Notes under the pieces: generated by a model | The model's input: the letters and a program-made list of their open reading frames with translations, nothing else | Database searches by the model: none | What the model was told of the DNA's origin: nothing | Shown here: positions 11,861-16,968 of the stretch, piece by piece | How the letters are laid out: every line of letters starts with the position of its first letter | Numbering within the stretch: position 1 is the stretch's first letter | Position numbers and translations under genes: made by a program | From: Chiloscyllium plagiosum | Taxonomy: Eukaryota | Assembly (NCBI RefSeq): GCF_004010195.1 | Contig: NC_057718.1 | Coordinates: forward strand, 92,267,388 to 92,287,387 | Reading direction: 5' to 3' | Length of the DNA stretch: 20,000 nt

Positions 11861-12632
11861 CATCCATGATTAAGAATTGCAATGTCTCCCAAATGAAAAA
11901 TATTTTCTAAGGCGATATGATTTTTCTATCGTCTGCAATTAACACCTCAGTTGAAAAGTTGGGCATAAAATATAATGGGTAGTGAATGTGTGCAGTGTAT
12001 AAATTTACAGTTAGCTTCATGTTTAGACAACTTAAGCAGTTGCGTTCCAATTTATTAAATTCCAGTTATACAGCAAAACTTTTATAGGACAAAGCATTGT
12101 GAGAGACATTTCACTGCACTAACAATACCTCCCTCTTACATATCAAAATAAGAGGAGAATTAGTTTTTTAAAGTGATGTATTCATATCCATTTATCTGCT
12201 TGGAGCTATTTACACTCTTGCAGAAAAAGCTACGAGAAGATTTATTGGCATTTTGTTTTTAACATTATGTGATATTTAGATAAGGTGTGAATAAGGTAAG
12301 ACTACTTTCTGTGTTTCCAGGCTCCAGTAACATTATAAAGTGAGGAGGAATATTAGGAGATTTTTTTAATGTGTGTTAATCAACACAGAAAATGATTTAA
12401 TCAGAGACAATTGCAGCTTATCAGAAAGGAGAGAATGAATCAATGGAGAGAGAACAGCAGATTAGTTTTGGATTACTGTACCAAGTGTCCAGAACAGATA
12501 CAACTGGATAAACATCTATGCTTCCAAAGAAATTGTGGATATTCTTGCTCATTCTTGAACATAATAGGCAATAATACTATTACCCAATATCTCCTCCTCA
12601 AATGTTAGCAAGAAAAGAACAATTTTAAAGAA

Positions 12633-12840
12633 ACAAAGAACTGTGGATGCTGGAAATCAGAAACAAAAACAGAAATTGCTGGGAAATCTCAGCTGGTCTG
12701 GCAGCATCTGTGGAGAGAAAGCAGAATTAAAGCTTTAGGTCCAGTAACTTGAGGAAGAGGAAGAGTCTAGGGATGGGTCACTGGACCTCAAACATTATCT
12801 CTGCTTTCTCTCCACAGATGCTAAACGGGCAATTCTGTTT
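12633..12840. mobile_element. Fold-back (palindromic) short element related to the 15075-15199 element; Penelope-type terminal-repeat derivative with a decayed hammerhead motif
   Basis: Perfect 23-bp inverted repeat at 12703-12725 / 12800-12822, inner 11/12 inverted repeat at 12737-12748 / 12777-12788, and outer aaacagaaattgc / gcaattctgttt. Its 5' end (ctgtggatgctggaaa) matches ctgcagatgctggaaa at 15088. Confidence 0.7.
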
Positions 12841-13211: not shown

Positions 13212-14086
13212 GTAGATGAGAACTTAGCAAAATCCAAAAAAAAAATCCAACCTTCAAGAAGCTAGATGCAACAGTGGTTTTTTAATAACTATCCATTGAT
13301 GAAGAACTTCATTTGTTCACAACCTCCTTTTATAACCTTTTGTTTGACTGCCGTAATGCATCACATCAGTCCCAGCAAATTTCCAGGGACAACATCAATC
13401 CTAGGGGAACTGGATGAAGTCATTTTTCATGAGGATGAAGTCTTGATGCAAGCATCCACTCACAATCAATATGACACCAGAGTGCAAGCTGGGCTGCAAT
13501 GCCTAGCGGAAGCATGACTTTACTTAACAAGAAATGTCAATTCTCACACATGACTATCTGAATGCTTGGGGGTTTTACAGATGCATCCGGCATAGAAGTC
13601 AAGAGCAATGAAGAGATTTACAGCTCCACGGTATGGAACTGAGCTTTAGATATCTTGTGTATGGTAAATCAATTTGTAAGTGTGCTGCCCAACCTAGCTG
13701 CTATCAATAAGCCATTATATAACCCATAAAAGAGATCTTTTGAGAATATCAGAGAGATGTGGATATGAGTTGATATATGAGCTCACCATGATCCAGAGGT
13801 ACTCATTCTCATTATTGCAGATTTACTTTCTACAGGATTGGGATCTGTATGCTCTCAGATACTGAAAGATGGAAAATGCAGACAGGTTTGCTACACATCC
13901 CATTCACTGCCAGAGACTCAACACAAATCTGCAGTGATAGAGAAAGAAGAATTAGATGATACATGGGCTTGTAAAAAGTTTGCAGATTATGTTCTTGGTC
14001 TTCATTTCAAGACAGAGATAGATGATAAACCTTTAGTGACACACAGGAATTCTGAGGAATTAGTGAAAATGCTTCGACAAGTACAA
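13212..14086 (+). mobile_element. Ty3/Gypsy LTR-retrotransposon pol fragment (RT and RNase H), pseudogenised
   Basis: VDENLAK...FKKLDA.SGF**LSIDEE...FIT (LDxxxGFWQ and TFITP motifs); ILGELDEVIFHEDEVLM (YxDD region decayed); RNase H region GLGSVCSQ..DGKCRQVCYTSHSLPETQHKSAVIEKE...WACKKFADYVLGLHFKTEIDDKPLV. Confidence 0.9.
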
Positions 14087-15074
14087 AAGGTTAAGGACAA
14101 TCCAAAGAGATTCTACAAGAACATTAAAAGCAAAAGAGCAACTAGAGAGAGAAAGTAGGGCGCCTTCAAGATCAATGAGGTCATCTTGGTGTTGAACCTC
14201 AAGGGGATGGGAGAGATATTAAATAAATATTTCCTGTTGGTTTTTACTGTGGAGAAGGAAATGGTGGGTAGAGAACTCCAGTCATTGATGTTTTGAAAAC
14301 AATACACATTACAGAAGAGAAAGAGCTGGAGGCCTTAGTAAACATAAAGGTGAAAAAAATCACTGGGATCCAATCAAGTGTATTTGAAGACATTGTGAGA
14401 AGTTAGTGAGAAAAGTGCGGAGTCCCTTGCAGAAATATTTGTATCATCTATAACCACGGGTGAGGTACCAGAGGACTGGAGGGTAGCTAAAGTTGTGCCT
14501 TTACTTAAGAAAGGTTATAAAGAGAACCTGGGAATTGTAGACCCATGAGTCTGACATCTGTATTATTAAGTTGTTGGAGGTGATTCTGAAAGATAGGAGT
14601 TACATGCATTTGGAGAGGCAAAGAATGATTAAGGGTAGTCAGCATGGTTTTGTGTGAAGTAAATTGTCTCACAAACTTGACTGAGTTTTTTTAAGGAAGG
14701 AACCAAAAAGATTGGTGAGGGCAGAATGGTAGATGTTGTTTACTAGGACTTTGGTAAAGCCTTTGATAAGGTTCTGCATGGTAGTGGTGGTGGAGGCCTG
14801 TGACCCAACAGTGTTCCACAGAAAACAGTACTGGGTTCACCTTTGTTTGTCATGTATATAAATGATGTGAATGAGAATAAAGGAGGCATGGTTTGTAAGT
14901 TTGCGGATTACACCAAAATTGGTGGCATAGTGGACAGTGAAAAAGGTTACCTAAGATTTCAAATAGATCTTGATAAATTGGGTCATTGGGCTAAGGAGTG
15001 GCAGATTGATTTTTAATTGGGTAAGTGCAAGATATTGCATTTTTGTAAACAAACAAGGGCAGGACTTATACAAG

Positions 15075-15199
15075 GTAAAGACAATGACTGCAGATGCTGG
15101 AAACTAGATTCTGGATCAATGGTGCTGGAAGAGCACAGCAATTCAGGCAGCATTCGAGGAGCTTCAGCAAAATCGACGTTTCGGGCAAAAGCCCTTCAT
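15075..15199 (-). mobile_element. Short Penelope-type (hammerhead-bearing) retroelement insertion with 15-bp target-site duplication
   Basis: Flanked by identical caggacttatacaag at 15060-15074 and 15200-15214. The internal sequence is not CR1 and retains CpGs. Confidence 0.8.
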
Positions 15200-15207
15200 C
15201 AGGACTT
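15170..15207 (-). ncRNA. Minimal type I hammerhead ribozyme motif
   Basis: Minus strand 5'-AAGUC CUGAUGA A GGGC UUUU GCCC GAAA CGUC GAUUU-3'. Intact CUGAUGA and GAAA core, 4-bp stem II with a UUUU loop, palindromic loop-less stem III (ACGU), GUC cleavage triplet and a 5-bp stem I (AAGUC/GAUUU). Confidence 0.8.
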
Positions 15208-15248
15208 ATACAAGACCTAGCGGTTTAGGTACATAATTCTTTGACATT

Positions 15249-16968
15249 AGGCAGCTATGTGTGGAGCCGCAGGAAATGGGGGAGATGCTAAACGAGTACT
15301 TGCATCAATGTTTACTGTGGAGAAGGACATGGAAGATATGGAATGTGGGGAAATAGATGGTAACATCTTTAAAAAAATCCATATTACCGAGGAGGAGGTA
15401 CTTGATGTCTTGAAACGCATAAAAGTGGATAACTCTCCTGGGCCAATCAGGTATACCCTAGAGCTCTGTGGGAAGTTAGGAAAGTGATTGCTCGGCCACT
15501 TGCTGAGATATTTGTATCATTGATAGTCACAGGTGAGGTGCTGGAAGACTGGAGGTTGGCTAATGTGGTGCCACTATTTTAGAAAGGTGGTAAGGACAAG
15601 CCAGGGAACTGTAGACCGATGAGCCTGACATCGGTGGTGGGCAAGTTGTTGGAGGGAATCATGAGGGACAGGATTTACATGTATTTGGAAAGACAAGGAC
15701 TGATTAGGGACAGTCAGCATGGCTTTGTGTGGGGGAAATCATGTCTCACAAACTTGACAGATTTTTGAGGAAATAACAAAGAGGATTGATGAGGGCAGAG
15801 TGGTAGATGTGATCTATATGGCCTTCAATAAGGTGTTTGACAAGGTTCCTCATGGGAGATTGGTTAGTAAGATTCGATCTCATGGAATACAGGGAGAACT
15901 AGCCCTTTGGATACATAACTGGCTCGAAGGTTGAAGACAGAGGGTGGTGGTGCACGGTTGTTTTTCAGCCTACAGACCTGTGACCAGTGGAGTGCCACAA
16001 GGATCAATGCCATTTATATAATTGATTTGAATGTAAACATAAGAGGTATAATTAGTAAGTTTGCAGATGACACCAAAATTGGAGGTGTAGTGGACAGTGA
16101 ACAAGGTTACCTCAGAATACAATGGGATCTTGATCAGATGGGCTAATGGGCTGAGGAGTGGCAGATGCAGTTTAATTTAGATAAATGCGAGATGCTGCAT
16201 TTTGGAAAAGCAAATCAGAGCAGAACTTCTACACTTAATGGTAAGGTCATAGAGAATGTTGCTGAACACAGAGACCTTGGAGTGCAGGATCATAGTTCCT
16301 TGAAAATAGAATCGCAGATAAATAGGATAGTGAAGAAGGCATTTGGTATGCTTTCCTTTATTGGTCAGATATTGAGTATAGGAGTTGGGAGGTCATATTA
16401 CAGCTGTACAGGACATTGGTTAGGCCACTTTTGGAATATTGCGTGAAAATCTGGTCTCCTTCCTATCGGAAGGATGTTATAAAACTTGAAAGGATTCAGA
16501 AAAGATTTGCCAGTGTTGGAGGATTTGAGCTATAAGGAGAGGCTGAATAGGTTGGGGCTGTTTTCCCTGGAGTGCCAGAGGCTGAGGATTGTCCTTATAG
16601 AGGTTTATAAAATCATGAGGGGCAGGGATAGGATAAATAGACAAGGTCTTTTCTCTGGGTTGGGGGAGTCCAGAACTGGAGGGCATAGGTTTAGGGTGAG
16701 AGTGGAAAGATATAAAAAGGACCTAAGGGGCAATATTTTCACACAGAAGGTGGTGCATGTATGGAATGAGCTGCCAGAGAAAATGGTGGAGGTTGGTACA
16801 ATTACAGCATTTGAAAGACATCTGGATGGGTATATGAATAGGAAGAGTTTGGAGGGATATGGGCAAAGTGCTGGCAAATGGGACTAGAATAGATTAGGAT
16901 ATCTGGTCAGCATGGAAGAGTTGGACTGAACAGTCTGTTACCGTGCTGTGCACCCCTATGACTCTATT
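15249..16968 (+). mobile_element. CR1/HER1-type LINE copy B (younger, 5'-truncated, RT to 3' tail) nested in copy A
   Basis: EMGEMLNEY/ASMFTVEK; GEVLEDWRLANVVPLF; SQHGF; FADDTKIGG at 16060-16086; LSYKERLNRLGLFSLE...WNELP; 3' tail ctatgactctatt. Copy A resumes after it. Confidence 0.95.

Follow-up and report, generated by a model that had tools for sequence, protein, structure and literature searches.

Minimal hammerhead ribozymes in the pseudo-LTRs (pLTRs) of metazoan Penelope-like elements (PLEs) are already known: Cervera and De la Pena (2014, PMC4209133) described these min-HHRs and reported low activity. The available text of that paper notes no in vivo evidence for a role of the Penelope hammerhead, whose function is called unclear in the available part of PMC8557442. 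The latter source also places a CX2-5CxxC linker between the reverse transcriptase (RT) and the endonuclease (EN) of Neptune, and also of Nematis. In the Anolis Poseidon element PAc two fixed 3' ends follow about 100-130 nt downstream of a hammerhead, and Frangieh et al. (2024, PMC11167929), who equate the optional tail with two RT start sites, report in the sections available that cleavage is dispensable in vitro and that no reads end at the cut. Non-LTR retrozymes (Cervera and De la Pena, 2020, PMC7229834; Li et al., 2026, preprint), as far as these sources are available, are short, non-coding, hammerhead-bearing and PLE-related, consist of tandem 150-450-bp repeats with mostly canonical type I hammerheads, and are expressed as abundant monomeric RNA, linear and circular.

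The window analysed here is a 20,000-nt stretch of Chiloscyllium plagiosum DNA, in which the initial annotation had placed an intact minimal hammerhead within a 125-bp insert at 15075-15199. Reading the minus strand, we found the core boxes, the GUC site and the cut position at exactly the positions given for them, and the extra A, the GC-rich stem II and the loop-less palindromic ACGU stem III are present as described. The motif is composed as follows:

15203-15207, minus strand: stem I 5' strand AAGUC of the window copy; 15203-15204 are common to the element, 15205-15207 are CR1 target.
15196-15202, minus strand: hammerhead core box CUGAUGA (C3 at 15202 to A9 at 15196), with C3-U4-G5 inside a 5-nt microhomology with the target (sequence, CR1 paralogues).
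15183-15195, minus strand: bulged extra A (15195, between A9 and stem II) and stem II GGGC/GCCC with a UUUU loop (15194-15183); the A bulge recurs in 189 of 201 motifs.
15175-15182, minus strand: GAAA box (15182-15179), then C-G-U-C (15178-15175), forming the ACGU palindrome, which has no loop and makes helix III only in a dimer, and the GUC triplet, an architecture as in the available text of PMC4209133.
15170-15174, minus strand: stem I 3' strand GAUUU (15174-15170), starting past the predicted cut between 15175 and 15174; the 5' junctions of sister copies peak here.

Positions along the motif are numbered with C3 as 0 and the first base past the predicted cut as +28. A relaxed hammerhead descriptor gave one match in the window and one in 300 first-order Markov simulations of it, and we conclude that the motif is real and beyond chance. 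Cleavage aside, all features listed for min-HHRs in the available text of PMC4209133 can be read from the sequence: a type I core, a nucleotide between 9 and 10.1, G10.1-C11.1, a palindromic 15.2-16.2 with no loop 3, a short helix I, and an occurrence mostly as single dispersed motifs from truncated PLEs with inverted pairs nearby; stem II has 4 bp here, whereas the same source gives 7-8 bp for Schistosoma. An Rfam search of the window at E<=10, as the initial annotation had proposed, returned no hammerhead, likely because minimal motifs have no helix III. The U6 and miRNA matches that were returned are weak and fall on repeats, and we rejected them; that to U6 (16457-16554, 24.8 bits, far under the cut-off) lies on CR1 RT sequence and is a chance match. 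No tandem repeats were found in the window.

The insertion that carries the motif, and its surroundings, have the following parts:

15073-15204, minus strand: short copy of an EN+ Penelope-like element, covering its 3' end (pLTR end and tail), 97.7% identical to the sister copy L016 and continuous there with a GIY-YIG ORF.
15073-15109, minus strand: optional Penelope tail of about 36 nt, present in the window copy; its inner boundary, drawn from two 3'-end classes among 184 copies, is approximate.
15060-15074, plus strand: left copy of the target duplication, CR1 sequence by its paralogues; the final 2 nt are common to the element end.
15200-15214, plus strand: right copy of the target duplication, by CR1 paralogues; the initial 5 nt are common to the element.
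14394-15260, plus strand: decayed CR1-type LINE RT region, the target, with approximate outer limits (repeat families D1, D4, D6 and D7; RT-like frames; paralogue alignment).

The perfect target site duplication claimed for the locus holds as an exact 15-nt direct repeat, CAGGACTTATACAAG, at 15060-15074 and 15200-15214, but seven of its 15 bases are microhomology: 5 nt at 15200-15204 (including C3-U4-G5) and 2 nt at 15073-15074 are common to element and target, CR1 paralogues giving AAGTCCTG as the target sequence. The target duplication is thus 8-15 bp long, and the element-matching stretch is not the 125 bp first proposed but 132 nt, with its 5' end 2 nt before C3 (-2). The same overlap qualifies the hammerhead itself: the core is indeed intact, by way of the 5-nt microhomology, and the five pairs of stem I exist, but the 5' strand of that stem lies inside the target duplication and three of its five bases are CR1 DNA, so that stem I is partly host-made. 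That the retro-insertion is recent is borne out by its 97.7-98.5% identity to sister copies, and four CpGs are retained, as had been noted.

The target LINE, which we take from its motifs to be of CR1 type, lies in a 3.56-Gb genome rich in CR1; on a neighbouring paralogue (15583-15765), RVT_1 was matched at E 3e-5, under the Pfam cut-off. Compared with paralogues, about 35 nt of CR1 are absent at the insertion site (15074/15215), through an earlier deletion or as part of the insertion event. A search for the empty site in four DNA runs of three samples found no joint skipping exactly the insert and one duplication; the skips listed fit CR1 paralogues, and one contig has the left junction with no differences. 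Elsewhere in the window, at 12631-12822, lies an older relative of the same element type whose two head-to-head arms form an inverted repeat (12703-12748 / 12777-12822); its decayed hammerheads belong to the GGGUC/GACCC family. An RT-RNase H remnant of an LTR-type retroelement (13781-14158, plus strand; PF17917, E 4e-12) adjoins the CR1 fragment.

The attribution to a Penelope-type minimal hammerhead was upheld both by copy number and by linkage to Penelope RT and GIY-YIG ORFs. Genome-wide there are 15,140 exact copies of the 33-nt motif (reversed control, 0) and 20,101 of the 30-nt element 3' end (control, 0), and the best sister copies, 96-98.5% identical, have a fixed 3' end and ragged 5' ends. 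In L016, which bears the same subfamily marker and is 97.8% identical to L024 over their shared part, the sequence upstream of the motif is a pyrimidine-rich 3' UTR and then a GIY-YIG frame, while L012, with the same marker, runs upstream into the RT thumb. RVT_1 (E 6.6e-7, at the cut-off) and GIY-YIG (E 9.5e-4, under the cut-off) share one frame in L110, and GIY-YIG is above the cut-off in L106; a YIDD motif and a CX4CxxC linker are visible, the latter stretch reading CHRRNCKTC in L097, L106, L107, and L110. A single ORF with RT followed by a C-terminal GIY-YIG is thereby seen in sister copies, not in the window copy. The partial tandems L262, L266, and L271 link the hammerhead stretch directly to the ORF start: the order in L262 is EN end, 3' UTR, hammerhead, tail and ORF start, with the first in-frame ATG about 40 nt past the tail end, and a partial tandem of this type makes the hammerhead-bearing stretch of L016 and L262 a pLTR. 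A search with a 157-aa piece of the protein raised 75,714 candidates at first look, and the 150 matches that were scored stand at 88-100%; this is not a copy number. No intact full-length ORF was found in 20 8-kb regions, where the longest open stretches have 400-570 readable aa.

Judged by these alignments, the insert is the last ~130 bp of an abundant endonuclease-bearing PLE, one of >15,000 near-identical stubs, and the parent is an EN+ PLE, Neptune-like by its linker. By itself, the window copy is ordinary. The order of RT, CX4CxxC linker and GIY-YIG matches that of Neptune and Nematis in the available text of PMC8557442, and the partial tandems, the inverted 5'-truncated pieces, the optional tail (30-40 bp in described EN+ PLEs, ~36 nt here) and the 5' joins by microhomology have counterparts in what is available of PMC8557442 and PMC3846280. 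Unlike the EN+ PLEs described in those texts, this family has an extreme excess of ~100-130-bp copies and no intact ORF among the regions inspected. Its copy number exceeds the figures of 4,000 for coelacanth and 9,000 for Xenopus given in PMC4209133, the available text of which mentions no cartilaginous fish.

As in PAc, a distance of ~100-130 nt separates the hammerhead from two fixed 3' ends, which would be the two RT start sites. In a survey of 184 copies from loci picked regardless of 3' end, 69 have their 3' end no more than 3 nt from the tail end and 54 stop 33-40 nt earlier; 43 more halt at -47, where a subfamily difference breaks the alignment. The PAc ORF starts at the core AUG (PMC11167929, available sections), whereas the core AUG of the window copy opens 11 codons only and the in-frame ATG of the family lies past the tail. 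In most subfamilies (spacer 16 or 19 nt) the ORF frame is open backwards through tail and hammerhead (L262:860-1250; window 15073-15204, minus strand), though the first ATG is downstream; in one young subfamily an 18-nt spacer breaks this frame.

Short copies prevail: among 92 copies picked by their 3' end, 65 have their readable flank within ~140 nt of the tail end. This would suit a 125-bp unit that is mobile in itself, a non-autonomous element, retrozyme-like as the initial annotation had supposed or SINE-like, that is transcribed, self-cleaved to monomers or circles and inserted in trans by a Penelope protein; three cut-site junctions (L401, L402, and L403), in which the first base past the cut is joined head-to-tail to the inner 3' end, speak for it as well, and the preprint of Li et al. 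(2026), in its available part, derives retrozymes from pLTRs. Yet copies of the same subfamily extend into the GIY-YIG ORF (L016) and the RT thumb (L012), so that a coding master is not absent, and the 5' ends are ragged rather than set at a single boundary. The insertion is a single unit instead of consecutive tandem units with complete hammerheads, and among 289 motifs in the fetched loci we found no regular head-to-tail array: a same-strand neighbour within 600 nt accompanies 24, at irregular spacings of 43-542 nt, and an opposite-strand neighbour lies near 68. A monomer excised by the hammerhead would moreover start at the cut, whereas the window copy starts 30 nt upstream. RNA run X19, a poly(A) single-cell run unsuited to small circles, showed no joints or pile-ups and weighs neither for nor against such RNAs. 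In contrast to a retrozyme, the window insert is a dispersed fragment of a coding element, and we regard the retrozyme reading as largely refuted and very improbable.

Across the fetched loci, CUGANGA, GAAA and UH boxes were found in type I order, and the palindromic 15.2-16.2 is CG in 143 of 201 motifs and CA/TG, from CpG decay, in 43 more. The stem I 5' strand of the family is UAUUC in 61 of 85 exact-core motifs, giving C-G, U-A, a U.U mismatch and A-U, a stem weaker than that of the window copy. The covariation proposed as a check was seen in part. Between five families, compensatory pairs were found by inspection in stem I (AUUC/GAWU, AGUC/GACY, AGUU/AACU, GCA/UGC and CCA/UGG) and in stem II (GGGC/GCCC, GGGU/ACCC and GGGUC/GACCC), AGUC/GACY going with GGGU/ACCC, AGUU/AACU with GGGUC/GACCC, and GCA/UGC and CCA/UGG with long stems II. 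Within the main family, by contrast, variation falls on N7, loop II and the CpGs, and stem II is invariant in the young family. The two hammerhead families with long stem II and GCA/UGC or CCA/UGG in stem I were seen at L100:1991 and 6381, L266:236, L232, and L200:455.

The monomer folds best as an inactive hairpin, UGAUG/CGUCG, whose 3' base falls on +28; for the dimer, the cleavage-type fold is less stable than the best one by 14 kcal/mol in the family and by 7 kcal/mol in the window copy. These folds agree with the low activity reported in the available text of PMC4209133, and slow cutting is predicted for the family hammerhead, either in dimeric form or assisted by protein. The window copy differs in that its stem I, formed with target bases, counts five pairs where that of the family counts three, and its cleavage-type dimer reaches -17.5 as opposed to -10.3 kcal/mol, as might be expected if the stronger ribozyme now cleaved a host antisense or intronic transcript. 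We consider such host use highly improbable, since the locus is a decayed LINE amid other repeats, the copy is young and one of >15,000, and helix III requires a partner, the monomer folding inactive.

We next consider where sister copies begin. Among 223 copies that keep the stretch from stem II to the cut, a set that includes loci picked by the hammerhead query, 45 flanks are unreadable; 102 of the 178 readable 5' ends fall between +8 and -10, with a mode at -4 (n=19) and few per base past -10. Of the 92 copies picked by 3' end alone, 42 have their 5' end at +9 or later, 23 have it at +8 to -10 and 14 still further upstream, the other 13 being unreadable. In an independent DNA run, place 896 (= -4) has the most loose ends among the rows listed (72 contigs, varied flanks). 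Three families show C/T-A-K-T-Y at -4, which we take to resemble the initiator consensus. A test for an untemplated cap G before -4 did not reveal one in the young family (2 of 11 copies), and in older families the preceding base is G in 8 cases as against A in 1 and T in 3, several of these being fold-backs. The RNA evidence consists of run X19, X20 having given 0 reads; in X19 no start or end pile-up was called, both strands were about equal with 95% of reads running into unrelated sequence, and there were no spliced joints at possible 3' splice sites upstream of the motif. Apparent 5'-end clusters at +40, +47, -170, and -188 were rejected as artefacts of indels relative to the reference. 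The window copy, with its end at -2 and its microhomology, belongs to the class that ends at the front edge of the motif; since the sequence before the cut is retained in it, its template RNA would have been uncut.

We are left with a preferred explanation that we hold with considerable confidence: the window copy is a short pLTR-end copy of an abundant RT and GIY-YIG PLE, likely internally primed, run to the RNA 5' end and joined to CR1 by microhomology. The observations behind it are family identity, copy number, the ORF link in partial tandems, the two fixed 3' ends, the 5'-end clustering and the microhomology. By analogy with the anole element (PMC11167929, available sections), reverse transcription would start inside the element RNA at the tail end; the cDNA would extend ~130 nt and run off at the likely RNA 5' end at the hammerhead front, transcription starting near -4 on the simplest reading of the 5'-end cluster, and would then join CR1 DNA via the 5 nt of microhomology. 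The resulting stub was probably dead on arrival, because it does not include the stretch of ORF, downstream of the priming site, on which the anole protein depends.

Having spotted several junctions at +28, we counted such junctions genome-wide with patterns that require two non-element bases before the element. Raw matches numbered 869 at +28, 77 at +29 and 125 at +27, and reading of flanks gave real junctions for 34 of the first 65, 19 of 20 and 9 of 20, respectively, of which host-DNA junctions made up 10/65, 10/20 and 2/20 of the matches read. The raw 869 was rejected as a junction count, since 28 of the first 65 matches are CG-prefixed: of the 15 that were read, 13 have a 16-nt duplication or are complex and the other 2 carry a one-base insertion; the remaining 13 were taken to be of the same kinds, and all were scored as non-junctions. 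Corrected for pattern acceptance, with factors that assume host base composition and without CpG-decay correction at +27, the young subfamilies counted hold ~1,300 junctions at +28, 290 at +29 and 160 at +27, an excess of 4.5 (3.2-6.4) over +29 and 8 (4.9-15) over +27; with host flanks only, the ratios are 2.5 (1.2-5.4) and 10 (3-55). Among 297 local copies, 8 begin at +28, as against 1.3-1.5 per base at +9..+27 (p about 1e-4; the background list has 28 junctions, 2-3 of them point variants).

A broader pattern that includes older subfamilies gave 2,443 matches, the first 100 of which, read by eye, comprise 17 clear and 7 CpG-ambiguous junctions at +28, 7 at +29, 2 at +27, 10 at +26, 1 at +25, 10 at +24, 2 ambiguous ones, and 44 at +30 to +33, a range made imprecise by degenerate bases. 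The +28 peak thus shrinks to 17-24 of the 100, where a neighbouring base has about 8, and a second rise, of 10, stands at +26. Fold-back microhomology to the element itself, with stem I, is seen in about 9 of the 24 at +28. In the loose-end tables of four DNA runs, the cut site is not among the few rows listed, beside 283 further rows, and the tables therefore speak neither for the peak nor against it. Two side observations concern the same position. In several of the loci L294-L319 a 16-nt duplication starts exactly at the cut, making up about 40% of the raw +28 matches; this lineage may go back to a single old event in which cDNA ran off at the cut and synthesis was primed anew on a downstream GAU, or to plain slippage. 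In L401, L402, and L403, and in L239, the inner 3' end (or the ORF start) is joined head-to-tail onto the first base past the cut.

The +28 peak is real but modest, and it may reflect run-off on cut RNA, RT stalling at the inactive hairpin, or fold-back microhomology with stem I. The last two belong to an account that leaves the identity of the element as in our preferred explanation and differs in mechanism alone: ordinary 5' truncation from the downstream pLTR, with cluster and peak produced by RT pausing, microhomology and fold-back, and neither a transcription start nor cleavage. Heavy 5' truncation is the norm for PLEs in what is available of PMC8557442 and PMC3846280, the 3' base of the hairpin falls on +28, many junctions are made to inverted pieces of the element over 1-4 nt of microhomology, opposite-strand neighbours accompany 68 of the 289 motifs, and run X19 has no pile-ups. 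Stalling, however, leaves unexplained the ends at -4, beyond the hairpin, and the steep fall past -10, and the +28 maximum, with its steep drop at +27, persists when only junctions to host flanks are counted. We rate this account a serious possibility, though somewhat likelier to be wrong than right. The sharp +27 drop and the host-flank excess favour a defined end, and do not separate run-off from stalling. A few per cent of sister copies start exactly at the cut, likely from cut RNA, a reading whose chances we put at about even against RT stalling or microhomology.

A single copy matters little; it is the junction statistics of the family that bear on the open role of Penelope hammerheads. 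PAc has no RNA ends at the cut in the available sections of PMC11167929, whereas DNA junctions here are enriched at it. We found no comparable junction count in the literature searched, though shark motifs or such counts may be in Lunse et al. (2017) or in supplements. With tens of thousands of young copies in this genome, DNA junctions counted base by base suffice to test both for cleavage in vivo and for the position of the RNA start. We tentatively propose, at chances falling only just short of even, that the insertion ends of this family are a genome-wide record of two RNA 5' ends, a transcription start at the first helix I base, to which the window copy would belong, and the cut of the hammerhead itself 32 nt downstream. 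If true, a metazoan Penelope minimal hammerhead would cut in the germ line, and cut and uncut RNA would both be copied and inserted.
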